Positions 43,094 to 62,585 are shown, counted from the first letter of the stretch. The stretch is DNA of 64,000 nt from Candidatus Helarchaeota archaeon (GCA_019058315.1 JAHPZH010000002.1:1325910-1389909), one strand, 5' to 3'. Made by a program: numbers and translations. Notes: generated from the letters alone by a model not told the origin.

Positions 43094-43363
43094 AAAAAGC
43101 AATATTCTTTTTTTTTTATTTCTTAAAAAAATAGTTAAATTTTATATTTAATTAGTATATTTATCTATTTTTTATTCGATTTCATTTGTATCTTTATAAT
43201 CTTATTTTTTATTATTGGGATTAATTTTTAAAATATACAATCGTATAAAAAAATTGACAAAAAATTAAAAAGAAAATTCGTAAATTGGATATTAATTTAT
43301 AGTTTTAACCCAATGACCAAAAAATTTGAGTTTGGGTTTAAAAATCATTTTGGAGTTTATAAT

Positions 43364-43753
43364 ATGCTTGATGTAATCTTAATGTCGGGCAGAACAATAA
43401 ATCAAGGCAGATCTCTAGAAGGTGGTAAACTTGGTGATGAAGCAATCATTGCCACCGGTTCAGTTTTCATGGATCAAGAAGATATGAAAGCTATGAAAAT
43501 TTTAACGGGAACTTTAGTAAAAGTAAAGACCGAATTTGGGGAAATAGTTGTTCGTGCTCGAACTAGTCCTGAACAACCTCACAAAGGTATTATTTTTATC
43601 CCTATGGGGATTTATGCTAATGCTGTAATAGATCCAGAAACAAATTCTACAGGAATGCCGACATTTAAAGGAATAAAAGCAACTGTAGAGCGAGTTGTTG
43701 GGGAAAAAGTTTTAACCCCTGCTGAGATTATTGCAAATTATAAAGCGGAGTGA
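43364..43753 (+). CDS. fwdD: Formylmethanofuran dehydrogenase subunit D
   Basis: SGRTINQG, FIPMGIYAN and TGMPTFKG. Overlaps the fwdB start. ATG at 43364 follows GGAG. Confidence 0.93.
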   Translation: MLDVILMSGRTINQGRSLEGGKLGDEAIIATGSVFMDQEDMKAMKILTGTLVKVKTEFGEIVVRARTSPEQPHKGIIFIPMGIYANAVIDPETNSTGMPTFKGIKATVERVVGEKVLTPAEIIANYKAE

Positions 43754-45069
43754 GTAAAATGGCTGAAAAAATCATATCCGATGTGACTTGTGCCTTTTGT
43801 GGTGCATTGTGTGATGATTTAGAAGTAGTAATTAAGGATAATAAGATTATAGAAACTCGAAATGCTTGCACGATAAGTACAGCAAAATTATTTGCATGTA
43901 ATAATTGGGAACACCGTATTACCAAACCATCTGAAAGGGTAAATGGAGAAATCAAAGAAATTAAGCTTGAAGAAGCCATAAATAAAACAGCTAAAATTTT
44001 AGTCGATGCAGAAAGACCGCTCCTGTATGGGTGGGCCAACACTGACAATGTTGCCATTGGTCTAGGTGTTGAGCTTGCGGAATTAGTTGGTGGAGTTTTT
44101 GACAATACTGCTACGGTATGTCATGGACCAAGTATTTTAGCAGAACAAGATGTAGGTGTTTCGACTACAACTCTTGGAGATGTAAAAAGTAGAGCCGATA
44201 TGATTCTATTCTGGGGTTGCAACCCTATGGCAGCTCATCCAAGACATTTAGCACGTTATTCCATTTTTCCCCGTGGATTTTTTAGAGATAAAGGAGTCAA
44301 AGAAAGAGAAATGATTGTCATTGATCCACGATATACCGATACAGCTAAAATTGCAGATAAATTTATAAAAGTCGAGCCCAACAAAGATTATGAATTAATG
44401 AGTGCAATTAGAGCTGTCTTAAACGGATTAGAACTAAAAGAGGAAGTAATCGCTGGGGTAACTAAAGAAGATATTATTGAACTTGCTGAAAAACTTAAAA
44501 AATGTAGTTTTGGAATAATTTTCTTCGGATTAGGACTTACTATGAGTAGTGCAAAGCATAGAAATATAGATATTGCTATTTCTCTTACTAGACAATTAAA
44601 TAAATATACCAAATGGCTTATTATGCCAATGCGGGGACATTGGAATGTAACAGGCTCCAATACTGTTCCAACATGGCATATTGGGTATCCATTTTGTATT
44701 GATTTTTCATTAGGTTATCCACGATATGGTCCTGGAGAATATTCTTCAAATGATCTATTATATAAAGGGGAATGCGATGCAGCATTAGTTGTAGCCTCAG
44801 ATCCTGCTGGAAATTTCCCAAAAAAGTCCGTTAAGAACCTTGCAAAAATCCCTGTAGTAACTATTGACCCTCATCATACTCCAACAACTGAATTAGCACA
44901 AATTCTAATTCCCGCAGCAGTAGTTGGAATAGAAACAAGTGGTACTGGGTATCGTATGGATCATGTTCCACTTCATTTGAAAAAGTTGATTGAACCCCCT
45001 GAAGGAAATCTACCAGATGCTGAAATTCTGCGAAAAATCATAGATGCAGTTAAAAAACTGCAAAAATAA
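43750..45069 (+). CDS. fwdB: Formylmethanofuran dehydrogenase subunit B
   Basis: CAFCGALCDD, TVCHGP (Cys ligand, not Sec), WGCNPMAAHPRH, PMRGHWN and YRMD. Confidence 0.96.
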   Translation: MSKMAEKIISDVTCAFCGALCDDLEVVIKDNKIIETRNACTISTAKLFACNNWEHRITKPSERVNGEIKEIKLEEAINKTAKILVDAERPLLYGWANTDNVAIGLGVELAELVGGVFDNTATVCHGPSILAEQDVGVSTTTLGDVKSRADMILFWGCNPMAAHPRHLARYSIFPRGFFRDKGVKEREMIVIDPRYTDTAKIADKFIKVEPNKDYELMSAIRAVLNGLELKEEVIAGVTKEDIIELAEKLKKCSFGIIFFGLGLTMSSAKHRNIDIAISLTRQLNKYTKWLIMPMRGHWNVTGSNTVPTWHIGYPFCIDFSLGYPRYGPGEYSSNDLLYKGECDAALVVASDPAGNFPKKSVKNLAKIPVVTIDPHHTPTTELAQILIPAAVVGIETSGTGYRMDHVPLHLKKLIEPPEGNLPDAEILRKIIDAVKKLQK

Positions 45070-46602: not shown

Positions 46603-47619
46603 TTAAACATTTGCTCGTTCAAAAAATTTTATTAATTCTTCTTGTAACTGAGCAAATTTTGGATATTTAACCTTAATTTTGTAAATATTCATCCCGACTA
46701 AATTTTTAATATCTTTATCATGATTTGAAATCTTAATTTTATTAATAATTTCATCTACTATTAGAAAATCAGCTTGAAATTGCGTATAATGAATTATACA
46801 AGTTCCTTTTTTAATTTTTATAAAATTACGAAATACATTATTTGCATCCCTTTTTCTAAAATTCCATGTTTTTTGGCGATACTCATTTTCAATCTCTTTC
46901 AAAGCCTCTATTTCCGAATCTTTAAGGTCATCTTCAACTAATTTAGTTTTCAAAGTGGTTTCATAAGCGTTTTTCAATCCTGATATTGCTTCATCAACAG
47001 CTATTTGACGATTTAACTCTTTATTGAGTGTTGTAATATTTTTTTCTAATTGGTTTTCCACTAAATCTTTAAATTTATTGCTAGGAACGTTTAAAATTTT
47101 GGAAAATTTTTCATAATCAAAATCTAGAAGTATATTACCAACCATTACGCCTGCATTTTCAATCGAAACTGCGCCATTTCCTGAAATTTTTTTGTTATTT
47201 ATTTGAATTTCATTAAAAACTATTTTGGAATTCAGATTTAAATCCTTTAAGAATTGGTTTGGCCCTTTTAGAGCAATTGAGTATAAATTTTTAATAGGCG
47301 ATGGGAATCCAAATCCGTTAAGAATTACATTATAAAATACTTGATCTTTTTCTAAAAGGACTAGTCCTCCCCCTGCCAATCGTCTTACTAATGCAATTTT
47401 ATTTTTTCCACAAAAATCTAAATTTACTTCTTGATAAAAATTCTGATGATATCCACAACTTATTGAACTTTTATTTGTTGTAGTTAAAAGAATAATATTA
47501 GTTTGTGGAGTCTTGGAAATTTCCAAAGCTAACGCATGATATATAGCTTGAACTCGAATAGGTTCTAAATTCTTTAATATAACTAAACGCCACTTTGCTT
47601 TTTCAGAAAGCATTTTCAA
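46603..47619 (-). CDS. lplA: Lipoate-protein ligase A family protein
   Basis: SCGYHQ, RRLAGGG, KKISGNG and ITTL. Directly downstream of the lipoyl carrier gene. Confidence 0.85.
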   Translation of the reverse strand: MKMLSEKAKWRLVILKNLEPIRVQAIYHALALEISKTPQTNIILLTTTNKSSISCGYHQNFYQEVNLDFCGKNKIALVRRLAGGGLVLLEKDQVFYNVILNGFGFPSPIKNLYSIALKGPNQFLKDLNLNSKIVFNEIQINNKKISGNGAVSIENAGVMVGNILLDFDYEKFSKILNVPSNKFKDLVENQLEKNITTLNKELNRQIAVDEAISGLKNAYETTLKTKLVEDDLKDSEIEALKEIENEYRQKTWNFRKRDANNVFRNFIKIKKGTCIIHYTQFQADFLIVDEIINKIKISNHDKDIKNLVGMNIYKIKVKYPKFAQLQEELIKFFERANV

Positions 47620-47684
47620 GTCAGATTATTTTTTTTAAATTAGTACAAAATTTTAAAAAATAAAAAAAAAGCGATAGTTTTTAG

Positions 47685-48113
47685 TTATTCTTTTTTGACA
47701 TTTTTGGCAATTTCTTCTTTTACCCAAGCTTGAAAATCCGGATTGTTCACTCGAAATAAATCATTTAACTCATCTTTATTATCTGGTTTTATTTTACAAA
47801 TCCAACCTTCACCATAGGGTGAACTATTCATAATAGTTGCATCATCATCAAGTTCTTCATTTGCTTCTGTAACTATGCCATTGACTGGGCCATAAATTCT
47901 ACCTACCCATTTTCCAGATTCAAGACTTGCGAATGGTTTTCCTTTTTTAACTTTTGTATCCTCATCCGGGAGTTCTACATAAATAAACTCCCCTGCAAGC
48001 TGTTGGGCATAATCGGTTACACCTAAAGTTAAAACATCTCCATCATCTCTTACCCAAAAATGATGCTCTGTATAATAAAGATCGTCTGGAAAATCAAATT
48101 CATCAATTTTCAT
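47685..48113 (-). CDS. GcvH-family lipoyl carrier protein (LbpA-like ESGKWVG motif)
   Basis: LYYTEHHFWV, GVTDYAQQLAG, lipoyl-Lys in ESGKWVG and NSSPYGEGW. ATG at 48113 follows GGAGGAG. Confidence 0.92.
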   Translation of the reverse strand: MKIDEFDFPDDLYYTEHHFWVRDDGDVLTLGVTDYAQQLAGEFIYVELPDEDTKVKKGKPFASLESGKWVGRIYGPVNGIVTEANEELDDDATIMNSSPYGEGWICKIKPDNKDELNDLFRVNNPDFQAWVKEEIAKNVKKE

Positions 48114-48124
48114 TACTTCTCCTC

Positions 48125-48424
48125 CTACATACATGATACAATTTTATTTTCAACTACTAAATCTACAAATCCATCATAATCTATGAGCTTAACATAATCA
48201 TTGAGATCTTTTATAGCTCGTGCTTCTAAGTCTGCTTTTAAAGCATAGACCGCAATTCCATTTTTTTTAAATTTATCTATAATGTCTTCTGTAACTATTC
48301 CTTTTTTCGCTGCAATTACTGCATCTTCGATTAATATAACTTTTGAATCACTTGCTTTTTTTAAATTTGAGCACTGTTCCAAATCTCTCGTATTTAAGGG
48401 GGATTTACCCATTACATATAACAT
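48125..48424 (-). CDS. dsrH: Sulfur relay protein DsrH/TusB
   Basis: LIEDAV, VYALKADLEAR and IDYDGFVDLV. Third gene of an E-F-H triplet. Confidence 0.88.
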   Translation of the reverse strand: MLYVMGKSPLNTRDLEQCSNLKKASDSKVILIEDAVIAAKKGIVTEDIIDKFKKNGIAVYALKADLEARAIKDLNDYVKLIDYDGFVDLVVENKIVSCM

Positions 48425-48433
48425 TTTATCACC

Positions 48434-48793
48434 TCAAAACGGAATTATATGATCGAATTGGCTTAAAACTTTTTCAAAATTATCTGGTGTGCACACTTGA
48501 GCATCGATTGTTAATTGATCCACTGTAATATTACGCTCTTTGAGAGATTGTCCGCATACATAGAACTTTTCGATATCCATCTCTTTCAAATCGGGTAATA
48601 CTTGTCCCAATGCTTTCATTTCTATTGCATCAGGTTTCTGATCCTTTAATGCAACAAAAACTCCATCATGTATAAATAAGACTTCAACATCTACTTCAAA
48701 TGAAGCAAGCCCCATAATAGCCCTAATTGCTTCTGCTGCATATACCGTTCCATAAGGGGATTTTCTTATCATAATCAGTACTTTTTTTGGCAT
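48434..48793 (-). CDS. dsrF: Sulfur relay protein DsrF/TusC
   Basis: RKSPYGT, EAIR, LFIHDGVF and SLKERNI. Confidence 0.88.
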   Translation of the reverse strand: MPKKVLIMIRKSPYGTVYAAEAIRAIMGLASFEVDVEVLFIHDGVFVALKDQKPDAIEMKALGQVLPDLKEMDIEKFYVCGQSLKERNITVDQLTIDAQVCTPDNFEKVLSQFDHIIPF

Positions 48794-48796
48794 ACT

Positions 48797-49165
48797 TTAA
48801 CCTCCAAATGTAATAAATCTGTCAGACTCCTCTACAAAATCAGCTAATTTTCCTAAACCAACAATTTTCGTATTTTCTATTGCTGCATCTTTTGTTAAAC
48901 CTCTGAATTTAGAGCACGCCACACAAGCATAGACTTTAACACCTTGAGCTCCAATTTCCGAAAACATTTTTGCAATATTTCTTTCCCCAGGTGGAACAAT
49001 CTTCTTATTAATATTATTTACTCCATCTGTGTAAAAGAAGACCCCTGTTATTTCATGACCTTTTTTAAGAGCTGCTTTAATGAAATGATATGCAGTATCA
49101 CTTGCTTGATGCTGATAAGGACCCGTTAATACCATTATTCCTATTTTCATTTTTTTCATTTCCAT
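48797..49165 (-). CDS. dsrE: Sulfur relay protein DsrE/TusD
   Basis: TGPYQHQASDTAYHF, FFYTDGV, active-site region ACVACSKFRG, GLGKL and DRFITFG. Confidence 0.9.
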   Translation of the reverse strand: MEMKKMKIGIMVLTGPYQHQASDTAYHFIKAALKKGHEITGVFFYTDGVNNINKKIVPPGERNIAKMFSEIGAQGVKVYACVACSKFRGLTKDAAIENTKIVGLGKLADFVEESDRFITFGG

Positions 49166-49192
49166 AAGTTTGTTATTTTTTCAATTTTTAAT

Positions 49193-49702
49193 CTATAATG
49201 ATAAACAAGTAGGCGATTCAGCAAGATTAAAACGAATATCTTCTTTAAAAGTTCTCAAGATAGCGTGAGAAACTATCTTTTGAATTCCCTCAATTTGTGC
49301 AATTCTTCTTGATAATTTAGCTGCACTTTCTGCATCTACACATCTAGCCAAGCAAGCAAGTTGAAAATCGCCTGCAACCTGGTGAATATAGAGTAATTCG
49401 GGTACACAAGTTATAAGTTCTTTAGCAATTTTATTAATATCTGTTTTAGGATTTGTTTCTATAAAAAAACAAATCGGATAATTAAGGTTCAAAAAAGATG
49501 GATCAACAATTGTTGTATACCCTATGATAATATTTTTACTCTCTAACTCCTTGATCCTTCTTCTGACTGTTGAAAAAGAAATATCTATATTCATTCTCTT
49601 TTTTAACAATCTAGCTATTTCCCTTGGAGAATATCGCGAATCTTCTTGTAATAATTGAATAATTGCTGTATTCGTTTCATCCATCATTGAAAAATCTCTC
49701 AC
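49193..49702 (-). CDS. Lrp/AsnC family transcriptional regulator
   Basis: LLQEDSR...STVRRRIKELE...IIIGY HTH plus a RAM domain (VAGDF). Confidence 0.93.
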   Translation of the reverse strand: MRDFSMMDETNTAIIQLLQEDSRYSPREIARLLKKRMNIDISFSTVRRRIKELESKNIIIGYTTIVDPSFLNLNYPICFFIETNPKTDINKIAKELITCVPELLYIHQVAGDFQLACLARCVDAESAAKLSRRIAQIEGIQKIVSHAILRTFKEDIRFNLAESPTCLSL

Positions 49703-49882
49703 TTTTTTTTATAGATAAAGTTAACTTGATTTATCATTATTTTTTGATAAATAGTTTTTCTTGGTACAAACAATGTTTTTTAACTATAAAAAGTATTTCA
49801 TTTGAAACAAAACCTTATAAATAAAAAATCGATTGATTCGATAGTAACATAATTTTGGATCAAAAAATTTAGTGGTGATAAA
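49703..49882. promoter_or_regulatory. Divergent promoter region between the lrp-dsrEFH-gcvH-lplA and dsrE2-hdrCBA-tusA units
   Basis: 180-bp AT-rich gap between divergent genes. TATA-like TTATAAATA near 49815 and several short palindromes. Confidence 0.6.
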
Positions 49883-50311
49883 ATGTTAAAAAAAATGGCT
49901 TTCATTGTTGGTAGCAAATCTTTTGAAAAAATGATGATGCCCTTAATAATTTCACAAACAGCTGATGCAATGGATGTAGAGGTTGATATATTTTTTACAT
50001 TCTGGGGATTACAATTATTGAAGAAAGGAGCCGCTGACAAAGCAAAAGTAGAAGGTATGCCATTTCCTATGAAAGGGATGGCTGCTTGGATGTTTAAAAA
50101 GAAATTGAAAAAATTTGGAACTGACAATCCCAGTGAAGTAATAAAAGAACTTGCTAGTAACGGTAACATTCATCTATACGCATGTAATATGACTATGGAA
50201 TTGATGGGCGTTAAAAAGGAAGATTTAATTCCTGAAGTCGAGAAAGTATTAGGAGCAGCTAAATTCTTGGAAATTTGTGAGGACGCAGATCAAGTTCTAG
50301 TCTTCGCATAA
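49883..50311 (+). CDS. DsrE2/DsrE-like (YrkE-type) sulfurtransferase
   Basis: IFFTFWGL and HLYACNMTMELMG with the conserved Cys. GGTGA RBS. Confidence 0.88.
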   Translation: MLKKMAFIVGSKSFEKMMMPLIISQTADAMDVEVDIFFTFWGLQLLKKGAADKAKVEGMPFPMKGMAAWMFKKKLKKFGTDNPSEVIKELASNGNIHLYACNMTMELMGVKKEDLIPEVEKVLGAAKFLEICEDADQVLVFA

Positions 50312-50339
50312 ACTTTTTTTATATTAGAGGTGTTAAATC

Positions 50340-50864
50340 GTGAGTCAAACAGATAACTCAAAAATAATTCAATCTGAAGAATTAGATCCAAATTTTAAAT
50401 ATGAGGTGGCTAAAGAACATGGAGGAGAACAAATTAAATTTTGTTTTCAATGTGGAACATGTGCAGCAGGTTGTCCTATTCGCACAATAAATGGGGATTT
50501 TAATCCTCGCACCATAATACGTAAAGTTCTATTAGGTATGAGAAAAGAAGTTTTGTCAGGGAAAGAAATTTGGATGTGTAGTAATTGTTATATCTGTTAT
50601 GAAAGATGCCCCCAAAACGTTAAATTTACTGATATTATTTTTGCACTCCGTAATATTGCGGCTAGGGAAGGTTATACTCACCCCTCATTTGTAAAACAAG
50701 CTGACCTTATTCGTAATATGGGGAGATTATACGAAGTTACAGAGTTGGAATTAGATAAAAGAGAGGATTATAATCTACCTCCAATTAATCCAACCAATGA
50801 TGATTTAGATAAAGTTTTTGAAAAAACCAAAATTGAGGATAAATTAAAGAAAAGTAGGGATTGA
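50340..50864 (+). CDS. hdrC: Heterodisulfide reductase subunit C
   Basis: CFQCGTCAAGCP and IWMCSNCYICYERCP. Confidence 0.94.
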   Translation: MSQTDNSKIIQSEELDPNFKYEVAKEHGGEQIKFCFQCGTCAAGCPIRTINGDFNPRTIIRKVLLGMRKEVLSGKEIWMCSNCYICYERCPQNVKFTDIIFALRNIAAREGYTHPSFVKQADLIRNMGRLYEVTELELDKREDYNLPPINPTNDDLDKVFEKTKIEDKLKKSRD

Positions 50865-50865
50865 A

Positions 50866-51759
50866 ATGAAGAAATATTCAATATTTATTGGTTGTACTAT
50901 TCCTGTAAGAGCAATGAATTATGAAATCTCTTCTAGAAAAATATTAGAACATTTAAAAGTTCCAATTCAGGAAATCGAAGAATTTACTTGTTGTGGTTAT
51001 CCTGTCGAATCGGTTGATGAAATTAGTGCTTTAACTGCTTCCGCTAAAAATTTAGCACTTGCAGAAAAATATGATACTACAATAATAACTTTATGTAGTG
51101 CTTGTACAGGAACATTAACTAAAGCAAAGACAATCCTTGATGAAAATGAAGAATTGAGAAAAAAAGTAAATGAGAATCTTGAAGTTTTAGGATTAAAATA
51201 TACTAAAAAGGCTGAAATTAAACATATTGGTAAATTTATACTCGAAGATATTGGTCCAGAAAAATTAAAAGAATTAGTAGTTACTCCATTAACTGATTTA
51301 AGAATCGCTCCTCATTATGGTTGTCATTTTAATAAACCATCAAATATTTTTAACAATTTTGACGATACAGAATATCCTACTTCTCTGAAAATAATAATAG
51401 AGGCTCTTGGAGCCACTTATGTTGAATATGAAAATTTAATGCAATGTTGTGGTGGAGCTGTATTAGGAGTTGATGAGAGTCTTTCATTAACTCTAGCAAG
51501 AAATAAACTACAACATATTAAAGATGCTGAAGCTGATGCAATCACCTTAATTTGTCCTTTTTGTTACCTAATGTATGATGTTAATCAAAAAAGAATAGAA
51601 AAAGATAGTGAAGAGAAATTTAAAATTCCCGTCTTATTTTTACCACAATTAATTGGATTAGCATTTGGAATTGATCCCAAAGAATTGGGATTAAAATTGA
51701 ATCGAGTAAAGCCCAAGGAAATTCTAGCAAAGATAGAAATGTTAAGTGGAGGTAAATAA
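50866..51759 (+). CDS. hdrB: Heterodisulfide reductase subunit B
   Basis: Two complete CCG domains: GC...TCCG...CSAC and HYGCH...QCCG...CPFC. Confidence 0.95.
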   Translation: MKKYSIFIGCTIPVRAMNYEISSRKILEHLKVPIQEIEEFTCCGYPVESVDEISALTASAKNLALAEKYDTTIITLCSACTGTLTKAKTILDENEELRKKVNENLEVLGLKYTKKAEIKHIGKFILEDIGPEKLKELVVTPLTDLRIAPHYGCHFNKPSNIFNNFDDTEYPTSLKIIIEALGATYVEYENLMQCCGGAVLGVDESLSLTLARNKLQHIKDAEADAITLICPFCYLMYDVNQKRIEKDSEEKFKIPVLFLPQLIGLAFGIDPKELGLKLNRVKPKEILAKIEMLSGGK

Positions 51760-54700
51760 TTTGAAAGATTTAGTTGGTGCTGTATTAGTTGTAGGAGGCG
51801 GTATAGCCGGAATTCAATCATCATTGGACCTAGCCGATTCTGGATTTAAAGTATATCTGGCAGAATCATTACCAAGTATTGGAGGTAAAATGGCCCAATT
51901 AGATAAAACGTTTCCCACTAATGATTGTAGCATGTGTATCTTGGCCCCTAAAATGGTAGCTTGTTCTAGGCATCCTAATATTGAAATTATGACTTATTCT
52001 GATATAGTTGATTTCAAGGGTGAACCTGGAAATTTTAGTGTAACCGTCAATAAGAGGGCAAGGTTTATTGATGAGTCAAAATGTATTGGCTGTGGAACAT
52101 GTGCAGAAAAATGTCCTGTGAGAAAAAAGGTTTTTAATAAATTTAATGAAAATTTGGAATATAGAAGAGCAGCATACAGATTATTTCCTCAAGCAATACC
52201 TTCTACCTTTTTAATAGATAAAAATAATTGTATTTTTTTCAAAACGGGGAAATGTAAAGCATGTGAAAAATTCTGTCCTGCAGATGCAGTCGATTTTGAG
52301 CAGAAAGATGAATTAATTACTTTAAATGTTGGATCTGTAATTATTTCTTCTGGTATGGGAGTATTTAACCCTTCAAAATTATCTAATTTTGGATATGGAA
52401 TTGTTCCAGATGTCGTTACAAGCATAGAATTTGAAAGAATTTTAAGCGCTTCTGGACCTTATGGAGGACATATTTTACGACCTTCGGATAAAGTACCGCC
52501 TAAAAAGATAGCCTTCATTCAGTGTGTTGGCTCACGAGATAGATCTATTAACAGAAATTTCTGTTCAGCAGCCTGTTGTATGTATGCGATTAAAGAAGCA
52601 ATAATTGCTAAAGAACATGAACCCGATTTAGATATAACTATATATTACATGGATATAAGAGCATTTGGTAAAGATTTCGAAAAATATTATGAAAATGCTA
52701 AAAATATTGGAATAAAGTTTATAAGATCCCGCCCTACATCTGCTCAGAAACATGGAAACCAAATTAAAATAATATATGAGGATGATACAGAAGAACTTAA
52801 AGATGATTTATTTGATTTAGTAGTCTTATCAGTAGGGTTTCAACATAATGAAAAAATACAAGAAATTGATAATATATTTAATTTACAAACAAATGAGTTT
52901 GGTTTTACAAAGACTGATTCATTTAATCAAATGAAAACAAATACTAAAGGCGTATTCGCTTGTGGAATTAACTCAGGACCTAAAGACATTCCAGAAACTG
53001 TAACCCAAGCTTCCGCCGCTGCTGGTTGTGCAAGTGCTCTTTTAGCACCAACGAGAGGCAAATTAGTTAAACCTAAAGAATTACCTGAAGAAATTGATGT
53101 AAGAGGGCAACCTCCTCGAATAGGCGTCTTTATTTGTCACTGTGGAATTAATATCGGCAGTGTTGTAGACGTACCAAATGTTGTGGAATATGCAAAGACT
53201 CTACCAAATGTAGTCATTGCTGATGAGAGCCTTTATACTTGCTCCGCAGATTCACAAAATTCAATTAAAGAGAAAATCAAAGAGTATAATCTAAATCGTG
53301 TTGTCATTGCTAGCTGCACGCCCCGTACTCATGAGCCACTGTTCCAAGAGACTATAAGAGAAGCGGGTTTAAATCGACACCTATTTGAAATGTGTAACAT
53401 CCGGGAGCAAGATTCATGGGTGCATATGAAGGAGCCAGAAAAAGCGACTCAGAAAGCAAAGGAATTAGTCCGAATGGCTACCTTAAAAGCAAATAAGATT
53501 GAACAATTACAAAAAATCTCTCTTGATATTGTTAAAAAAGTCCTTGTAATCGGGGGAGGTATTGCCGGAATCACTGCAGCATTAGAAGCCGAAAAACAAG
53601 GATACCCAGTTTATTTGATTGAAAAAAAGGAAAAATTGGGTGGTTTACTTAATCAAATTCATATATTGCTAGATGATGAAGACCCTCAGAAATATCTAGC
53701 AGATAGAGTCGAAGAATTAAACTCTAGCAAAAATATACAAGTTTTTCTAAATTCAGAATTAATTGAACTAGGAGGATTTGTAGGAAATTTCAAAGCTAAA
53801 ATAAAAACAGGAGATAAAATTGAAGAATTAGATGCAGGAGCAGTTATTATCGCTACTGGAGGCGAACTATATAAGCCTATTGAATATTTCTATGGAAAAG
53901 ATGAGCGTATAGTTACTGGTCTAGAATTTGAAAAACTTATGTATGATAATCAAATAAAAGGGAAAACTTTCTGTTTTATTCAATGCGTAGGTTCACGAAA
54001 TGACCAAAATCCTTATTGTAATAGGATTTGTTGCTCGGAGGCAGTGAAAAATGCTATAAAAATTAAAGAAAAGATACCTGATTCAAACGTATTCATCCTT
54101 TACCGAGACTTACGTGTATATGGTTTAAATGAAAAATATTATGGAAAAGCAAGAGATATGGGTGTTTTTTTCATAAATTACGAACAAGAAAATCCTCCTG
54201 AAGCTAAACTTGAAAATGGAGTATTAACTGTCGAAGTGTATGATAAAATATTGAAGAAATATATCAATATTAAACCCGATAATCTGATCTTGAGCGTTGG
54301 TATTGATCAGAGAACGAATTCTAAACCAAATTTTGCAGAACTTTCACAAAAATTGAAGGTTCCTTTAAATAAAGAAGGATTTTTCTTGGAAGCACATATG
54401 AAACTAAGACCGGTGGATTTTGCAACAGATGGAATTTTTCTGTGTGGAACGGCCCATTGGCCAAAGCTGATACCTGAAACAATTTCACAAGCTATTGCTG
54501 CAGTGTCTAGAGCAAGTACAATCTTAAGTAAGGATTCAATCGAAACAGAAGGTATAGTTGCAAGAGTAAATCCTGTTCGATGCACGGCTTGTGGACTTTG
54601 TGTTGAAAATTGTCCTTATAATGCAATTGAATTACAAGAAGTAAGAGGAAAAAAGATCGCTGTTGTTAATGAAGCTCTTTGTAAGGGTTGTGGAACTTGC

Positions 54701-54790
54701 TCCGCAAATTGCAGATGTTCTGCGGTTGATCTACTCGGTTTTACGGACGAACAAATATCATTAATTATAAATTCACGAGCTATAGCTTGA
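51746..54790 (+). CDS. hdrA: Heterodisulfide reductase subunit A-like protein with two FAD modules
   Basis: GGGIAG twice, LDKTFPTNDCSMC, QCVGSR twice, GVFICHCG and ferredoxin motifs. Confidence 0.95.
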   Translation: MEVNNLKDLVGAVLVVGGGIAGIQSSLDLADSGFKVYLAESLPSIGGKMAQLDKTFPTNDCSMCILAPKMVACSRHPNIEIMTYSDIVDFKGEPGNFSVTVNKRARFIDESKCIGCGTCAEKCPVRKKVFNKFNENLEYRRAAYRLFPQAIPSTFLIDKNNCIFFKTGKCKACEKFCPADAVDFEQKDELITLNVGSVIISSGMGVFNPSKLSNFGYGIVPDVVTSIEFERILSASGPYGGHILRPSDKVPPKKIAFIQCVGSRDRSINRNFCSAACCMYAIKEAIIAKEHEPDLDITIYYMDIRAFGKDFEKYYENAKNIGIKFIRSRPTSAQKHGNQIKIIYEDDTEELKDDLFDLVVLSVGFQHNEKIQEIDNIFNLQTNEFGFTKTDSFNQMKTNTKGVFACGINSGPKDIPETVTQASAAAGCASALLAPTRGKLVKPKELPEEIDVRGQPPRIGVFICHCGINIGSVVDVPNVVEYAKTLPNVVIADESLYTCSADSQNSIKEKIKEYNLNRVVIASCTPRTHEPLFQETIREAGLNRHLFEMCNIREQDSWVHMKEPEKATQKAKELVRMATLKANKIEQLQKISLDIVKKVLVIGGGIAGITAALEAEKQGYPVYLIEKKEKLGGLLNQIHILLDDEDPQKYLADRVEELNSSKNIQVFLNSELIELGGFVGNFKAKIKTGDKIEELDAGAVIIATGGELYKPIEYFYGKDERIVTGLEFEKLMYDNQIKGKTFCFIQCVGSRNDQNPYCNRICCSEAVKNAIKIKEKIPDSNVFILYRDLRVYGLNEKYYGKARDMGVFFINYEQENPPEAKLENGVLTVEVYDKILKKYINIKPDNLILSVGIDQRTNSKPNFAELSQKLKVPLNKEGFFLEAHMKLRPVDFATDGIFLCGTAHWPKLIPETISQAIAAVSRASTILSKDSIETEGIVARVNPVRCTACGLCVENCPYNAIELQEVRGKKIAVVNEALCKGCGTCSANCRCSAVDLLGFTDEQISLIINSRAIA

Positions 54791-54878
54791 TATGATTTAT
54801 TAAAATGTATTAAAATGAATAATAATATTAAAAATTTCATGGGTTTTATCCCAGATTTAAAATATGAGGTGATTTTAA

Positions 54879-55109
54879 ATGGTTGAAAAAGATGAAACAT
54901 TAGATTGTTTAGGGCTATTATGTCCGGCACCTATAGTTAAATTATCTAAAAAAGTTAAAAAAATGGAATCTGGAAAAATATTAGAACTTATCGCAGATGA
55001 TGAGGGTGCTCTAGAAGACGTACCTGCCTGGTGCCGAAAAACAGGAAATGAACTAGTGGAAAGTAAAACTGAAAATGGTGTCTATAAGTTCTATGTCAAA
55101 AAAACATAA
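54879..55109 (+). CDS. tusA: TusA/SirA family sulfurtransferase
   Basis: LDCLGLLCPAP (CPxP), ADDEGA and DVPAWC. GAGGTGA RBS. Confidence 0.93.
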   Translation: MVEKDETLDCLGLLCPAPIVKLSKKVKKMESGKILELIADDEGALEDVPAWCRKTGNELVESKTENGVYKFYVKKT

Positions 55110-55359: not shown

Positions 55360-58300
55360 TTGGCGAATAATATTCTTGTGCTAGGTGGTGGAATAAGCGG
55401 AATACAAGCTTCACTCGACCTAGCTGAAATGGGGCTGCGCGTTTTCTTAGTTGAATCTTCTCCAAGTATTGGAGGTAGAATGGCTCAGCTAGACAAGACA
55501 TTTCCGACCAATGACTGCTCTATATGCATTCTTGCGCCAAAAATGGTCGAATGTGCACGCCATCCAAATATAACCATCTTATCCTATAGTGAGCTTAAAG
55601 AAGTTAATAAAAAAAATGATGTTTTTACAGTTAAAATATTAAAGAAGCCACGTTATGTTGATGAAATTAAATGTACTGGTTGTAGAGACTGTTTCACTGT
55701 ATGCCCCATAGAAGTACCAAATGAATTTGACCAAAATCTTAGAAATAGAAATGCAATTTATATTCCTTTTCCACAAGCAGTCCCTAACATCGCCACAATT
55801 GACAAAGAAAATTGTATTAATTGTGAGGCATGTTCAAAAAAATGTAAAACTGATGCCATTAATTATGATCAAAAACCTGAATTGATTGAACTAGAGGTTC
55901 AATCCATAATTGTTTCTATTGGCTTTGATTTATTTGATCCGAGTAAAATTTTACAATATGGTTATAAAAAATTTAAAAATGTTCTAACTTCTCTTGAATT
56001 TGAACGATTATTAAGTGCTTCTGGACCAACTCAAGGTGAAATATTAAAACTTTCAGATGGAAAATCACCTAAACACATTACTTTTATTCAATGTGTAGGT
56101 TCAAGAAGCACTAAATACCAACCTTATTGTTCGAAAATATGTTGTGTCTATACAACGAAAGAATCCATTGTAGCCAAGGAACATAATCCAAACATTCAGA
56201 TTTCCATTTTATATAATGATTTACGTGCATTAGGGAAGGGTTTCCGGGAATTTATTAATCGTGGAGAAATAGAATACGGTATAAATTATATTAAAGCACT
56301 TCCTGGGGAAATTTCAGAGGATCCTATAACTAAAAAATTATACGTGTCTTATGAAAACATGGATACGGGAGAATTTGAGATTCTAGAAACTGATATTGTT
56401 GTATTAGCTCCCGCAATGGTTCCAAAAAAAGATATTGAGCAAATATCTAATATTTTAGGTATTAAACTTGATAAATATGGGTTTTTTAAATGTGAACCAT
56501 ATTCTCCATTAGTTACAGATATTCCAGGTATCTATGTGACTGGGACCTGTTCTGGTCCTAAGGATATTCCGGAATCTGTAGGAGAAGGAAGTGGTGGGGC
56601 AGCAAGTGCTTTAGTTCCAAATGAACAAGAACATCAACCAATCCCTGAAAAACAACCAAAGCTGGAAAATACCTCACCAGCCCAACCAAGGATAGGTGTA
56701 TTTATCTGTCATTGTGGAGTAAATATCGGTGGAATTGTTGATATAAAAGAAGTGGCGGATTATATCAGATCTTTAAATAATGTCGTTTTTGTTGCTGAAA
56801 ACTTATATACTTGCTCAGAAGATACTCAAAAAATAATTAAAGATAAGATTAAGGAATTAAATCTTAATAGAGTGATTGTTGCTTCTTGTACCCCAAGCAC
56901 CCATGAACCTTTATTTAGAAAAACTTGTGAAGAAGCTGGACTAAACCCATACTTATTTGATCTAGCAAATATTCGTGAGCAAAATTCATGGGTTCATCAA
57001 AGAGAACCAGAAAAGGCAACTGAAAAGGCCAAAGATATAATTCGAATGTATGTTAAACGATCACAATATTCTAGTCCTTTAACTAAAATTAAAACAGAAG
57101 TCACTTCATCGGCATTGGTAATTGGGGGTGGGATTTCAGGCTTAATTGCTTCAAAAACCATTGCTAATAAAGGATTTAAAGTATTTTTAATTGAAAAAGA
57201 GGATAAATTGGGAGGTTTAATAAAAGATCTTTATAAATTATATCCAAATGAGAAAAATCCTGAAGATATATTAAACCCTATTATATCTGATGTGATAAAA
57301 AATAAAAATATAGAGGTTTTAACGTCTACTCGAATTGAAAATATAACAGGATCAATTGGTAATTTTGAAATTTTAGCGTTTAAAAATAATAAAGAATTCA
57401 ATTTCAATGTAGGTACAATTATCGTTGCGATTGGTGCAAATGAATCAAAACCAGATGGATTGTATGGTTACAAAAAAAATGCTAACGTTTATACACAGTC
57501 TGAATTTGAACAAATTCTAAGTTCAAATAAAGTAAAAAATGATGAAAAAATTGTTATGATTCTTTGTGCTGGAGTTGGGAAAGGAGAGAAAATTGCATAT
57601 TGTTCCTCCATCTGCTGCATGGAAGCATTTAAAAATGCCTTAATTCTAAAAAAACAAGCTCCTAATTCAGAAATCATTATTTTATATAAGGATATTTGTG
57701 TATTTGGAGATGGTGAAGAAGTATATAGAACAGTTAGGGAAGAAGGTATTCAATTTATAAAATATAATGCGAAAGAGGATATAAAAATTCTCGAATCTAA
57801 AGGAATTAAGATAAATATTTCAGTTTTTAATAGTTTTCTGAATAAAGATGTAAAAATTGTAGCGGATCGAATTGTTTTATCTACTCCAATGATACCAGCA
57901 ACAGATACTGAAGATTTATCAAAATTACTGAGAGTACCTTTAGCTTACAATGGATTCTTTTTAGAGGCACATGTAAAACATAGACCACTCGATTTTACAA
58001 ATGATGGAATTTATCTTTGTGGATCTTGTCAAAGTCCAAAATCTATCTCCGAATGTATCGCACAAGCTAAAGGAGCAGCAGCTAGAGCTCTAATACCTTT
58101 AATTAAGGGCGAGGTTGAAAGTGAAGCAATAATATCAGAGGTGAATCCCGAAATTTGTGTGGGTTGTGAAATTTGTGAATTACATTGTCCTTATGGTGCA
58201 ATTACTGTCCAAAAAGATGAAAATGAAGATCTTAAAGCTCAAGTTAATCCAAGTTTATGTAAAGGCTGCGGAATTTGTGCAGCAAGCTGTCCTGTAGATG

Positions 58301-58797
58301 CAATAACAATGAAAAATTTCACAAATGAGCAAATTCTCTCTATGGTTCAAACTGCAAAACAAGATTCTTCATTAAAAGATGAGACTATAATCATAGCTTT
58401 TTTATGTAATTGGTGTTCTTATCAAGGAGCTGATAATGCGGGAGTAAGTAGATTTCAATATCCAACATCAATAAGACCTATTAGGGTAATGTGCACGGGA
58501 AGAATAAGTATAAGCCATATTTTAAATGCTTTTAAAGCAGGTGCTGATGGTGTACTTATCGCAGGCTGCCATCCGGGAGATTGCCATTATGTGGACGGTA
58601 ATTTAAGTGCAGAGAGAAAAGTAAACTTAGCGAAACAGTTATTAAATAAAATAGGAATTAACGAGCGAAGACTTCGCCTAGAATGGATATCTGCAAGTGA
58701 AGGTAAAAAATATGCATCTGTTGTAAAAGACTTTCTTAACGAGTTAGAAGAATTAAAGACCAAAAAGGAAATGGTTGTGAGGGTTAAAGACTATTGA
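55360..58797 (+). CDS. hdrA: Double-module HdrA fused to C-terminal MvhD
   Basis: LDKTFPTNDCSIC, two GGGISG motifs, and C-terminal AFLCNWCSY...RVMCTGR...GCHPGDCHY. Confidence 0.94.
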   Translation: MANNILVLGGGISGIQASLDLAEMGLRVFLVESSPSIGGRMAQLDKTFPTNDCSICILAPKMVECARHPNITILSYSELKEVNKKNDVFTVKILKKPRYVDEIKCTGCRDCFTVCPIEVPNEFDQNLRNRNAIYIPFPQAVPNIATIDKENCINCEACSKKCKTDAINYDQKPELIELEVQSIIVSIGFDLFDPSKILQYGYKKFKNVLTSLEFERLLSASGPTQGEILKLSDGKSPKHITFIQCVGSRSTKYQPYCSKICCVYTTKESIVAKEHNPNIQISILYNDLRALGKGFREFINRGEIEYGINYIKALPGEISEDPITKKLYVSYENMDTGEFEILETDIVVLAPAMVPKKDIEQISNILGIKLDKYGFFKCEPYSPLVTDIPGIYVTGTCSGPKDIPESVGEGSGGAASALVPNEQEHQPIPEKQPKLENTSPAQPRIGVFICHCGVNIGGIVDIKEVADYIRSLNNVVFVAENLYTCSEDTQKIIKDKIKELNLNRVIVASCTPSTHEPLFRKTCEEAGLNPYLFDLANIREQNSWVHQREPEKATEKAKDIIRMYVKRSQYSSPLTKIKTEVTSSALVIGGGISGLIASKTIANKGFKVFLIEKEDKLGGLIKDLYKLYPNEKNPEDILNPIISDVIKNKNIEVLTSTRIENITGSIGNFEILAFKNNKEFNFNVGTIIVAIGANESKPDGLYGYKKNANVYTQSEFEQILSSNKVKNDEKIVMILCAGVGKGEKIAYCSSICCMEAFKNALILKKQAPNSEIIILYKDICVFGDGEEVYRTVREEGIQFIKYNAKEDIKILESKGIKINISVFNSFLNKDVKIVADRIVLSTPMIPATDTEDLSKLLRVPLAYNGFFLEAHVKHRPLDFTNDGIYLCGSCQSPKSISECIAQAKGAAARALIPLIKGEVESEAIISEVNPEICVGCEICELHCPYGAITVQKDENEDLKAQVNPSLCKGCGICAASCPVDAITMKNFTNEQILSMVQTAKQDSSLKDETIIIAFLCNWCSYQGADNAGVSRFQYPTSIRPIRVMCTGRISISHILNAFKAGADGVLIAGCHPGDCHYVDGNLSAERKVNLAKQLLNKIGINERRLRLEWISASEGKKYASVVKDFLNELEELKTKKEMVVRVKDY

Positions 58798-61700
58798 CAA
58801 ACAATGAGATAATTAAAAAATACAATAACCTATTAATTATAGGCGCAGGACTTGCAGGCATGGAATGTGCCCTCGATCTCGCCGATGCGGGCTATAAAGT
58901 CTATTTGGTTGAAAACAAGTCCTCTATTGGGGGAAAATATGCACAAATATATAAAATATTTCCTTATGACGAATGCGGTGCCTGTATTTTAACACCTAAA
59001 ATGAATCAAGTTGGTAAACACCCCAATATTGAAAATATTACTCTTGCAGAAATAAAAGGTGTGAAAGGGTCTCTAGGAAATTTTGAAGTTACTATTTTAA
59101 AACATCCAAGGTATGTGGATGAAGATAAATGCACAGGATGTGGGAAATGTATAGAAACCTGTCCTGTGGAAGTTTCAAACGAATATGATCTGGGATTATC
59201 TAAAAGAAAAGCAATTTATCTAGATTTTGCACAACAAATACCATTCGTAGTTACTATTGATAAAGATAATTGCATAGATTGTAGAATGTGTGTTCAAAGA
59301 TGTAAAGCTGAAGCAATAGACCATGATATGAAGGAAAAAGAAATTATATTACAAGTTGGGGCAATTATTATCAGTACAGGTTTTGAAGAATTTGATCCCT
59401 CTATAAAAGAAGAATACGGGTTTAAACGTTATAAAAACGTAATTACAAGTTTAATGTATGAAAGAATGACTCATCCGGCAGGTCTGGACAATATATCACG
59501 TCTATCTGATGGTAGAAAACCAAGAAGGGTAGTCTTTGTTAATTGTGTAGGAGCAAGAGACGAAAGTATTGGAAACTTATATTGTAATAAAGTATGTTGT
59601 ATGTTCTCAATGAAAAATGCAAGGAATTTACGATTGCATGAACCAGATGCGGAAATTATTATTTGCTATATTGATATAAGGGCTGCTGGCAAATTATTCG
59701 AAAGATATTATCGCTCTACTTTAGAACAATATGGAATCAAATTTATTAGGGGTAGAGTTAGTGAAATTTTAGAAGATCCTAATACAAAAGATCTGACAGT
59801 TCGTCTAGAAGACACAGAAGGAGCTGAACCGATCTCTCTTGAGAATGTAGACTATGTAATTTTAAATTGCTCATTTGTACCTTCCGAAGGAACTAAAAAA
59901 ATGGCAGAATTCTTTAATTTAGAACTCGGCTCTGATGGATTTATCCAAGATTTTCATTCTAATATAGGAGCTATTGAAACAAAAATACCTGGAGTTTATG
60001 TAATCGGAACTGCTCATGGTCCAAAGGATGGTACGGATGTAATTGCCGAATCAAAGGCTGCAGCTTCAGCTTGTACTGCAGATCTTCCTCCATTGTCAAG
60101 AGATTTAAAGGAAAAAATAATCGAAAAGAAAGAAATTGATGAATCTAAACTAAGAGTGGGTGTATTTGTTTGTCATTGTGGAGGGATTATTTCACATACT
60201 GTTGATGTTAAAGAATTGGTTGAGAAATTAAAAGAAGATCCTGATATTGAATTTGTTCAAGATTACATATTCATGTGTTCTAGTCCTGGTCAAGATTTAA
60301 TAAGAGAAAGTATAAAGAAATATAATTTAAATCGAATTATTGTAGCATCTTGCAGTCCACTTATCCATGAGCCTACATTTCGCGGTTGTGTAGAATCAAC
60401 TGGGCTTTCACGCTTTTATTTCGAGGGTCCTATAAATATTAGAGAACAATGCGCCATGGTACATAAGGACTACCCCGAAGATGCCACCACGAAGGCTTTG
60501 GCTTTAATTAAAGGTGGGGTAGCGAGAGTTTCACGCTTAAGAGAGGTCCCTATAGAAAAATTGGATGTAAAAAAATCAGTTTTAATTTTAGGTGGAGGGG
60601 CTTCAGGGATAACTGCTGGAATTGATTTAGCCAAAAAAGGATTAACTGTTTATATAATCGAGAAAGAAGAGGAAATTGGAGGTAGATTAAATAAATTATA
60701 TAAATTATTTCCCCATAAAGATGATGCACAAGAAATTTTGAAAGAATTAAAAACCAAAATAAAGCTTTATAAAAATATAATTATACACACATCAAGTAGA
60801 ATTACAAATTTTTCCGGTCGCATTGGGGATTATAATGTTAAAATTAATAAAAATGGAAAAGAAATAGAATTAAATGTTGGTTCTATAATCGTTTCTATTG
60901 GTACTAAGGTTTATACGCCGGAAATTGGCGAATATTGCTTTGGAGAAACTAAAAATGTTATCACCTCTTTAGATCTTGAAGAAATGCTCAAAAATGACTC
61001 TTTAAAAGACCCTGTATCTATAGCTTTTATTCAATGTGTTGGTTCAAGAGCGTATCCTGGGGAAAAAGGGCACATTCATTGCTCTAGAGTGTGCTGTAAT
61101 TCAGCTATTAAAAATGCTGAAATTATTAAAGAGAAATTTCCAAATTCTAACGTATTTATTTTATACAAAGAGTTTTTGAGAGTATATGGCCGTTTTATGG
61201 AAGAAAAATATATCGATACGCAGATGAAGGGTGTTAATTTTATCAGATGGCTTAAAGATAAACCACCCCAAGTAGAAGTTGATTCGAAATCGAATAAGAT
61301 TATGATATCTGTATATGATTCACTATTGCAAGATGAGATAAAAATTACGGCAGACTACCTCGTTTTATCAGTGGGTCAAGAATCTCCAGAAGATTTAGAT
61401 AATTTATGCAACATTCTTGGGATAACAAAATCCATTGATGGGTTCGTTGAAGAAATGCATATTAAATTTCGCCCAGTTGAAACTAAGGTTCCTGGAATTT
61501 ATTCTTCATCCTCATTTCCCAAAGACATAGCTGATTCTATCGCTCTTGCTCGTGGTGCAGCAAGCAAAGTCGCGATACAACAGAAGGGTATTGAATTAGA
61601 ATTAACAACTGCTGAAGTGGATGAGTCAGTTTGTGTTGGTTGTGGATTATGTGAGGCTGTTTGTCCATATGAGGCGATAAAAATGGTCGCAATAAAACCT

Positions 61701-61844
61701 GGCAAAATAATCTCGGTAACTGATACAATAAAATGTCAAGGATGTGGTACATGCGTAGCATCTTGCCCCATAGGTGCAAGAGATCACAGATGGTGGCGTG
61801 ATTCTCAATATCTTGCTCAAATAGACGCAATATTAAATGAATAA
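58794..61844 (+). CDS. hdrA: Double-module HdrA-like protein (divergent)
   Basis: GAGLAG, IFPYDECGAC, GVFVCHCG, GGGASG, QCVGSR and terminal ferredoxin motifs. 4-nt overlap with the upstream gene. Confidence 0.9.
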   Translation: MTNNEIIKKYNNLLIIGAGLAGMECALDLADAGYKVYLVENKSSIGGKYAQIYKIFPYDECGACILTPKMNQVGKHPNIENITLAEIKGVKGSLGNFEVTILKHPRYVDEDKCTGCGKCIETCPVEVSNEYDLGLSKRKAIYLDFAQQIPFVVTIDKDNCIDCRMCVQRCKAEAIDHDMKEKEIILQVGAIIISTGFEEFDPSIKEEYGFKRYKNVITSLMYERMTHPAGLDNISRLSDGRKPRRVVFVNCVGARDESIGNLYCNKVCCMFSMKNARNLRLHEPDAEIIICYIDIRAAGKLFERYYRSTLEQYGIKFIRGRVSEILEDPNTKDLTVRLEDTEGAEPISLENVDYVILNCSFVPSEGTKKMAEFFNLELGSDGFIQDFHSNIGAIETKIPGVYVIGTAHGPKDGTDVIAESKAAASACTADLPPLSRDLKEKIIEKKEIDESKLRVGVFVCHCGGIISHTVDVKELVEKLKEDPDIEFVQDYIFMCSSPGQDLIRESIKKYNLNRIIVASCSPLIHEPTFRGCVESTGLSRFYFEGPINIREQCAMVHKDYPEDATTKALALIKGGVARVSRLREVPIEKLDVKKSVLILGGGASGITAGIDLAKKGLTVYIIEKEEEIGGRLNKLYKLFPHKDDAQEILKELKTKIKLYKNIIIHTSSRITNFSGRIGDYNVKINKNGKEIELNVGSIIVSIGTKVYTPEIGEYCFGETKNVITSLDLEEMLKNDSLKDPVSIAFIQCVGSRAYPGEKGHIHCSRVCCNSAIKNAEIIKEKFPNSNVFILYKEFLRVYGRFMEEKYIDTQMKGVNFIRWLKDKPPQVEVDSKSNKIMISVYDSLLQDEIKITADYLVLSVGQESPEDLDNLCNILGITKSIDGFVEEMHIKFRPVETKVPGIYSSSSFPKDIADSIALARGAASKVAIQQKGIELELTTAEVDESVCVGCGLCEAVCPYEAIKMVAIKPGKIISVTDTIKCQGCGTCVASCPIGARDHRWWRDSQYLAQIDAILNE

Positions 61845-61850
61845 AAATAT

Positions 61851-62276: not shown

Positions 62277-62292
62277 AATGGAATTGATTTGA

Positions 62293-62580: not shown

Positions 62581-62585
62581 AAATT

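Follow-up and report, generated by a model that had tools for sequence, protein, structure and literature searches.

A lipoyl carrier and a persulfide relay joined to HdrCBA in one divergon of a Candidatus Helarchaeota archaeon: a candidate anaerobe-type counterpart of the sHdr-LbpA system

Results and Discussion

The window analysed here is a stretch of 64,000 nucleotides from a Candidatus Helarchaeota archaeon (GCA_019058315.1, JAHPZH010000002.1:1325910-1389909), in which two divergent gene units join a putative LbpA-type lipoyl carrier and its ligase, a set of sulfur transferases and a heterodisulfide reductase (Hdr). Genes were called from a listing of open reading frames (ORFs) together with Pfam and NCBIfam scans of the window proteins, and all eleven genes named in the initial annotation of this DNA were recovered. 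The minus-strand unit has the order lrp-dsrE-dsrF-dsrH-H protein-lplA. Its first gene (49193-49702) encodes an Lrp/AsnC-type regulator (HTH_24, HTH_AsnC-type and AsnC_trans_reg domains) and is followed by dsrE (48797-49165; TIGR03012, 89.9 bits with a cut-off of 89.25), dsrF (48434-48793; TIGR03010, 96.7 bits with a cut-off of 94.15), dsrH (48125-48424; PF04077, and TIGR03011 with the cut-off passed), the H-protein paralogue that we read as the carrier (47685-48134; PF01597 (GCV_H), 6e-40) and lplA (46603-47619; PF21948 LplA-B_cat, 5e-30), whose 338-aa product is a predicted dedicated lipoate-protein ligase paralogue. The plus-strand unit runs dsrE2-hdrC-hdrB-hdrA-tusA and comprises a gene for a DsrE2-type sulfur carrier (49883-50311; PF13686, 3e-31, with the match to NF047629 DsrE2 under its cut-off), hdrC (50340-50864; 4Fe-4S dicluster domains, TIGR03290, 122.8 bits and thus below the cut-off of 160), hdrB (50866-51759; two CCG domains, TIGR03288, 263 bits and below the cut-off of 345.15), a two-module hdrA for a protein of 1014 aa (51746-54790; two Pyr_redox_2/FAD modules and ferredoxin domains) and tusA (54879-55109; PF01206, 1e-26). 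Both units share, as had been proposed, a single divergent intergenic region of 180 bp between lrp and dsrE2 (49703-49882), and the spacing within each unit is -14 to 88 bp. By tblastn dsrF and dsrH each have one copy in the genome, and lplA is one of several Lpl paralogues. The listed carrier ORF begins 7 codons upstream of the methionine (48113) used by nearly all homologues; the start is more likely this methionine, as in the homologues, and starting there removes the 10-bp overlap with dsrH.

The key cysteines and the lipoyl lysine, described before as intact, are indeed in place in DsrE, DsrH, TusA, HdrB and the carrier. Cys81 of DsrE aligns to the active-site Cys78 of DsrE from Allochromatium (2hy5), to which the window protein is closer than to TusD from E. 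coli (87.6 vs 47.9 bits), and Cys18 of DsrH aligns to Cys20 of DsrH in 2hy5_C. The site of TusA reads CPAP. In HdrB, C10, C42, C43, C77, C80, C153, C194, C195, C230 and C233 are all invariant in an alignment of 29 members (A2), and these ten cysteines in two CCG domains are the set for two noncubane [4Fe-4S] clusters. The lipoyl lysine of the carrier is Lys75 within ESGKWVG, and E72, G74, K75, W76 and G78 are invariant in the carrier alignment (A1).

Other studies of sediment metagenomes provide contigs of about 96-97% identity to the window that span 48527-50217, 49623-52119 and 46876-48427, and as these independent contigs bridge the divergent gap and operon junctions, the arrangement is not an assembly artefact. 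The linkage of the two units, on which the initial annotation had built its proposal, is also found in a relative. A 4.7-kb metagenome contig from this more distant relative (L322; 56-84% protein identity) carries hdrA-hdrB-hdrC-dsrE2 divergent from lrp-dsrE-dsrF-dsrH-gcvH, with lrp kept in its position at 56% identity, and components of the two units stand together in clusters of Chloroflexota, Bacillota and Spirochaetes. The 180-bp region itself is conserved in patches between the window and L322, and a convincing common operator was not seen in this comparison. The comparative evidence supports the view that both units belong to one system.

LbpA is the lipoyl carrier essential for sHdr, the Hdr-like system of aerobic and microaerobic sulfur oxidisers, whose gene clusters also carry tusA and dsrE2 (PMC6067878; bioRxiv 10.1101/2023.12.18.572138). 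The homologues of the window's H protein are of two kinds by their lipoylation site, one with the canonical ESVKA and the other, called W-type in the following, with E[ST]GKW[VT]G. As the papers on sHdr do not print the LbpA motif, we read a reference from Sulfolobales-type sHdr loci of Thermoproteota genomes, found via a DsrE2 family scan over 300 genomes. The fetched loci have the order dsrE3A / dsrE2B-tusA-hdrC1-hdrB1-hdrA(365 aa)-hyp-hdrC2-hdrB2, and the H-protein paralogues beside lplA in two of them show ESAKWIG and ESGKWAG. A tree built from 113 H proteins places the canonical kind on one side of a branch (SH-aLRT 93, and 92 without the motif columns), and the W-type proteins, including the window carrier and the Sulfolobales-type LbpAs, lie across this split from canonical GcvH; the support is moderate, being below the 95 mark, and the tree was obtained by a quick search with a short alignment. 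The window carrier also passes the NCBIfam cut-offs for GcvH (138.5 vs 117 bits and 119.1 vs 115.85). Exact-sequence look-ups of the carrier and two homologues returned no record, and a look-up of the carrier in the ESM Atlas gave generic 'glycine cleavage H' clusters only. The tree thus lends moderate support to the window's H protein being an LbpA-family carrier of a distinct, anaerobe-associated sort.

A degenerate pattern built on the E[ST]GKW motif matched at least 599 stretches in a species-level genome collection, and the best 79 loci were analysed. Within 4 kb of the carrier, 60 of these 79 loci have an hdrC-like gene, 38 have hdrB, 28 hdrA and 19 mvhD, with at least three gene orders among them; no hdr gene, by comparison, lies within 3 kb in any of about 50 canonical ESVKA gcvH loci. 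The closest carrier homologues (42-55% identity), from about 20 Desulfobacterota metagenome-assembled genomes (MAGs), are encoded directly after hdrC-hdrB, the products of which are 40-49% identical to those of the window and which lie downstream of genes for split HdrA and MvhD. One Asgard family shows the order double hdrA-mvhD-carrier-hdrC-hdrB, and the double HdrA of such Asgard hdrA-mvhD-gcvH-hdrC-hdrB operons is 37-39% identical to the window's HdrA over the full length. More cases of carrier and Hdr genes together were found among metagenome contigs, and the pair of W-type gcvH and lplA recurs in loci of Jordarchaeia, other Asgard archaea, Bacillota and Chloroflexota. These comparisons support a tie between W-type carriers and Hdr/CCG genes in numerous anaerobes. 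A complex prediction of HdrB (A2), HdrC and the carrier (A1), run without controls, gave 0.31 at a mark of 0.32 and counts neither way on binding. As a separate observation, a locus in an Actinomycetota MAG (L213:2060-8699) holds in this order larA and genes for a GlcD-like FAD oxidase, a fused Fer4+CCG protein, a W-type carrier and a RACo-like activase, which suggests a lactate-linked CCG enzyme using the same carrier type.

The relay genes show a similar company. The closest relatives of the window's DsrE (55-66% identity) come from MAGs of Anaerolineae and other Chloroflexota, where they are part of dsrEFH-tusA-dsrE2 clusters. Among the 34 closest DsrE loci, many of them on short contigs, tusA is present in 28, dsrE2 in 25, an ArsR regulator in 21, a CCG protein in 12 and HdrA/MvhD in 9, and a W-type carrier and lplA are present in 6 each. 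A complete Chloroflexota chromosome contains in one run arsR-dsrEFH-tusA-dsrE2-Fer4+CCG protein-hdrA-mvhD-FeS-FeS-NAD/FAD protein-carrier-lplA (FeS, iron-sulfur protein). In a Bacillota MAG (L137) dsrE-dsrF-dsrH-carrier-lplA are followed by two radical S-adenosylmethionine (radical-SAM) genes, and a gene for an ArsR-TusA fusion is divergent from this set. In bacteria the cluster has an ArsR-type regulator in place of Lrp, and more distant DsrEFH sets from Magnetococcales, Nitrospinota and Proteobacteria are, with one exception, without such neighbours. Judged by these comparisons, the window joins in one divergon parts that recur together across several phyla. The ArsR-TusA fusion (L137:3829-4371, from a sample with a Guaymas-type name) is a protein of 180 aa with an ArsR-type helix-turn-helix and a TusA domain, and it is a candidate regulator that would sense persulfide via its own TusA domain.

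To place the Hdr genes, the content of the host genome (5.8 Mb in 12 contigs, about 30% G+C, 94% complete, 6.6% contaminated) has to be considered. It shares its phylum with Jordarchaeia, as three genomes reached via named Jordarchaeia loci have match coordinates equal to those of same-phylum genomes, which makes the host an Asgard archaeon. It encodes about 45 CCG-domain proteins, 12 HdrB-type paralogues and three mcrA-like genes with frames of 602-612 aa (C5:377506, C3:198869 and C11:316902). Of the 12 paralogues only the HdrB of one hdrC-hdrB pair (C3:48791-50151) passes the equivalog model TIGR03288 for the reductase of the heterodisulfide of coenzymes M and B (CoM-S-S-CoB) with 425.8 bits at a cut-off of 345.15. 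This Asgard genome looks like that of an alkane- or methane-metabolising type; because of the three mcrA-like genes the host probably makes CoM and CoB, and very probably it uses CoM-S-S-CoB with another Hdr than that of the window. The initial annotation had called the window genes a canonical, methanogen-type HdrCB in which the heterodisulfide is replaced as substrate. Neither statement can be kept in this form, as the HdrB of the window, one of 12 paralogues, scores under the equivalog cut-off and the genome has a separate canonical HdrB as well as the mcrA-like genes, so that there is no replacement at the level of the organism; what the window has appears to be a separate Hdr paralogue dedicated to this locus.

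By TIGR03288 score the window HdrB is the seventh of the 12 paralogues. In our phylogenetic tree it belongs to a clade of 20 sequences (UFBoot 99 / SH-aLRT 99), 17 of which adjoin an LbpA-type carrier, and its 11 genomic paralogues, canonical HdrB, sHdrB1 and sHdrB2 all fall outside, the latter two each forming a 100/100 clade of their own. Most members of the carrier-linked clade are bacterial, and synthesis of CoM or CoB is not known from these lineages. The best matches of the window HdrB in the PDB are HdrBs from methanogens (E 1e-59 to 1e-62). A pattern scan with the single HdrB protein gave six loci from Jordarchaeia, Nitrososphaeria and Freyarchaeota, which are too few for an unbiased census.

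The same genome was searched for the usual partners of H proteins and of DsrEFH. No match was obtained in the 94%-complete genome for PF02347 (GDC-P), PF01571 (GCV_T), DsrC/TusE (PF04358) or the NIR_SIR sulfite-reductase domain, all of which were matched in control genomes. The absence of gcvP, gcvT and dsrC reported earlier for the window thus extends to the genome, where the usual H-protein and DsrEFH partners are missing. The genome has one E2 acyltransferase of a 2-oxoacid dehydrogenase with lipA beside it on contig C3, and four H-protein paralogues, one of them a separate canonical copy of ESTKA type. Two others of the four are divergent copies on opposite strands that come directly after a second hdrC-hdrB pair (C5:639737-642146); they keep the lysine in the sites QAGKGW and EAGKGV, and an ORF of 2033 aa lies just upstream of this set. 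No radical-SAM gene is present in the window locus. A cluster of radical SAM-lplA-radical SAM was noted at C6:295206-297974, with 34-35% identity to the two radical-SAM genes that follow lplA in L137; it may represent a LipS1/LipS2-type lipoate assembly beside the LipA route.

From these data we lean, by a modest degree, towards reading the locus as a lipoyl-carrier-dependent Hdr with its own persulfide relay, an anaerobe-type counterpart of sHdr-LbpA. In this proposal LplA would lipoylate Lys75 of the carrier, and the two noncubane clusters of HdrB would reduce or oxidise the lipoyl dithiol/disulfide arm instead of CoM-S-S-CoB. TusA, DsrE2 and DsrEFH would move sulfane sulfur in the form of protein persulfides to or from the dihydrolipoyl arm, and the two-module HdrA together with the neighbouring HdrA/MvhD proteins would couple the redox change of the carrier to ferredoxin and a second electron carrier. 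Running in the reductive direction, sulfane sulfur and the dithiol would give H2S and the lipoyl disulfide, which Hdr would then re-reduce, and the outcome could be an electron sink or sulfide for biosynthesis. For the host archaeon this direction is the most likely one, since no sulfite reductase domain was found, which argues against a sulfite-producing direction, and since the lineages are anaerobic; it is also the weakest step of the proposal.

Several points weigh against this proposal. Two conserved cysteines near the N and C termini are typical for LbpA, with some archaeal LbpAs excepted (PMC6067878). The window carrier is without these two terminal cysteines and has a single one at position 112, no cysteine is invariant in alignment A1, and the protein is acidic like GcvH (isoelectric point (pI) 4.4), whereas the LbpAs of Sulfolobales have a pI of 6.6-9.0. 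The HdrB tree is biased, as most bacterial HdrBs were collected via the carrier, and for two clade members from Jordarchaeia no carrier gene lies within 7 kb of hdrB, although carrier-lplA pairs are encoded at other places in these genomes. Many Anaerolineae relay loci have no Hdr gene or carrier nearby, and a search with the window HdrB gave no HdrB match in the Bacillota MAG that has the relay-carrier module. With about -290 mV, lipoamide is far less suited as a high-potential acceptor than CoM-S-S-CoB with about -140 mV, and classical bifurcation onto lipoamide would be questionable and barely feasible. Finally, the host has MCR (methyl-coenzyme M reductase) homologues, and the use of CoM-S-S-CoB by the window Hdr would be compatible with its sequence.

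Of the other explanations the one that survives best, which we still consider rather unlikely, takes the carrier only as a DsrC-like redox hub, whose protein-bound dithiol/disulfide would shuttle electrons for HdrB and further CCG enzymes, with the relay feeding lipoyl synthases for building or repair of the cofactor. The Bacillota cluster, with its two radical-SAM genes, maybe LipS1/LipS2-like, behind dsrEFH-carrier-lplA, would fit such a supply, and so would the similar cluster elsewhere in the host genome. In Desulfobacterota, in Actinomycetota and in the Asgard family whose operons have the carrier embedded, most carrier-hdr loci are moreover without a nearby sulfurtransferase, so the link between carrier and Hdr does not need the relay. 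However, five sulfur-carrier proteins are many for cofactor supply, and the core arsR-dsrEFH-tusA-dsrE2 often occurs with Hdr genes and without any lipoylation gene. ArsR-type regulators sense sulfane sulfur in sHdr organisms (PMC12423496, PMC10451225), which points to a sulfur substrate, and like transferases deliver substrate in sHdr systems (bioRxiv 10.1101/2023.12.18.572138).

An oxidative, sHdr-like run of the same genes would turn carrier-bound sulfane sulfur into sulfite and pass the electrons via HdrA on to ferredoxin or a different carrier; it could be, for instance, the oxidative branch of sulfur disproportionation. The LbpA-type carrier, the position of tusA and dsrE2 on either side of the hdr genes, as in many shdr clusters (bioRxiv 10.1101/2023.12.18.572138), and the greater closeness of DsrE to the Allochromatium protein than to TusD are all in line with it. 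We regard it nevertheless as quite improbable, because the sHdr architecture is absent, the HdrB lies outside the sHdrB1 and sHdrB2 clades, and a sulfite reductase of NIR_SIR type was not found in the genome; furthermore, the host and all relatives bearing the cluster belong to strict-anaerobe lineages, and the HdrA/MvhD proteins are of the bifurcating type.

It is very improbable that HdrCBA is simply one of several CoM-S-S-CoB reductases serving MCR-type enzymes, with the carrier and the sulfurtransferases as unrelated neighbours. Such a role would account for the three mcrA-like genes, the ten retained cluster cysteines of HdrB and the methanogen HdrBs as its best structural matches, but it is another HdrB that passes the equivalog cut-off, the window protein ranks seventh of 12 and its clade is mostly bacterial, and the link to carrier and relay is seen again in several phyla and in the relative L322, which chance adjacency would not yield. 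Hardly credible is the reading of the H protein as an ordinary GcvH that serves glycine cleavage, or as a lipoyl relay to the one E2 of 2-oxoacid dehydrogenase type. The passed GcvH cut-offs and the presence of one E2 and lipA speak for it; against it stand a genome without a P or T protein match, a further H protein in this genome of canonical ESTKA type, the position of the window protein on the LbpA side of the family split and its lack of linkage to the E2/lipA locus on C3. Thiolation of tRNA by a TusBCD function of the DsrEFH set was also considered and is unlikely, with no TusE in the genome and the clusters tied to Hdr and carrier.

Downstream of tusA the plus strand continues with an hdrA-mvhD fusion (55360-58797; FlpD (MvhD) domain by family scan) and with hdrA (58794-61844), mvhD (61851-62276) and a shorter hdrA for a protein of 431 aa (62586-63881), the last three called by translation and tblastn likeness. 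Counting the hdrA of the divergon, the strand thus has three two-module hdrA genes for proteins of about 1000 aa, one of them fused to MvhD, besides the free mvhD and the 431-aa hdrA. The array at 55360-63881 probably supplies electron-input modules, its membership in the same system being suggested by same-strand adjacency alone. A further hdrC-hdrB pair lies past the window end (C5:1394208-1395586), and no hydrogenase or formate dehydrogenase for electron input was identified around the hdrA/mvhD array from the window up to C5:1395586. On the other side of the divergon, an ORF of 439 aa with a molybdopterin-oxidoreductase domain and an overlapping ORF of 146 aa ahead of it occupy 43313-45069 of the window; the former is short compared to a catalytic subunit of formate-dehydrogenase type.

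Among the known systems sHdr-LbpA is the closest relative of this arrangement, with the gene orders shdrC1B1AHC2B2 (type I) and shdrC1B1AHB3-etfAB-emo (type II) in Hyphomicrobium, Aquifex, Acidithiobacillus and Sulfolobales. Common to both are a lipoyl carrier that has an ES(G/A)KW site and falls on the LbpA side of the tree of H proteins, an adjoining lipoate ligase, TusA and DsrE2-type transferases flanking the hdr genes and a CCG-type HdrB as the presumed catalytic subunit. The window has, in contrast to the two copies each of type I loci, one hdrC and one hdrB, it is without sHdrH and EtfAB, and its two-module HdrA of 1014 aa with MvhD modules differs from the sHdrA of the compared loci (365-367 aa). 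Its HdrB forms part of the separate 99/99 clade, DsrEFH takes the place of the DsrE3 of sHdr, the acidic carrier is without the two cysteines of LbpA, and the host is a strict anaerobe in whose genome no sulfite reductase domain was found. The description as a form parallel to sHdr-LbpA, given in the initial annotation, fits with the LbpA-type carrier and with an HdrB clade apart from sHdrB1 and sHdrB2. Because its architecture, the type of its HdrA, the lineage of its HdrB and the cysteines of its carrier differ from those of that system, the locus is not a member of it, and the best reading is that of a variant of its kind.

HdrABC-MvhAGD of methanogens (PDB 5ODC), which provides the best PDB matches, shares with the window HdrC, a two-CCG HdrB with ten cysteines, and modules of HdrA and MvhD type. 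Different are the score of the window HdrB under the equivalog cut-off, its mostly bacterial clade, the fused double module of HdrA and the presence of another, canonical HdrB in the genome. The FlxABCD-HdrABC system of Desulfovibrio, for which DsrC is the proposed substrate, resembles the locus as a soluble Hdr in a non-methanogenic context that would work with a small redox-active dithiol/disulfide protein, and in the Chloroflexota cluster HdrA is followed by MvhD, two FeS proteins and an NAD/FAD protein. The substrate proposed for the window Hdr is however a lipoylated H-protein paralogue and not DsrC, no Flx genes are present in the window and no dsrC was found in the genome. With DsrEFH-DsrC-TusA from Allochromatium vinosum and TusBCD-TusE from E. 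coli the window has in common the E-F-H triplet with the active cysteines of DsrE and DsrH and a TusA nearby, but the genome has no DsrC/TusE or DsrAB and the gene after dsrH encodes a lipoyl carrier.

A GcvH-family gene beside hdr genes in a non-methanogenic archaeon is also known from the Ehe hydrogenase cluster of Ca. Culexarchaeia, which includes HdrA2B2C2 and GcvH, and for which GcvH was suggested in passing as a disulfide carrier for HdrB (PMC9723716). That cluster is centred on a membrane hydrogenase, without a reported sulfur relay or ligase (PMC9723716), and the likeness is drawn at the level of the GcvH family. Apart from this remark no prior description of the anaerobic system was found in the full-text literature, with subscription journals outside the scope of the search.

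Conclusion

HdrABC-like genes are abundant in non-methanogenic anaerobes, and the substrates assigned so far are DsrC for the sulfate reducers and the LbpA of sHdr for aerobic or microaerobic sulfur oxidisers. The locus described here adds a full relay and a carrier in a single conserved divergon, and with a canonical HdrB and MCR homologues in the same genome as internal contrast it is a good test case. Going further than this one archaeon, and only tentatively, lipoate bound to LbpA-type proteins could be the general dithiol/disulfide of a widespread HdrB/HdrD-like CCG clade in non-methanogenic anaerobes (Desulfobacterota, Chloroflexota, Actinomycetota, Bacillota, Asgard and other archaea), with the relay-linked carriers also holding sulfane sulfur. 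If this is true, protein-bound lipoate would fill the role that CoM-S-S-CoB has in methanogens and DsrC in sulfate reducers, and the loci with an attached relay would be a ferredoxin-coupled persulfide reductase new to description. The conserved link between the HdrB clade, an LbpA-type carrier, its ligase and a persulfide relay would give these enzymes a concrete, testable substrate and could alter the way in which Hdr genes in metagenomes are read.

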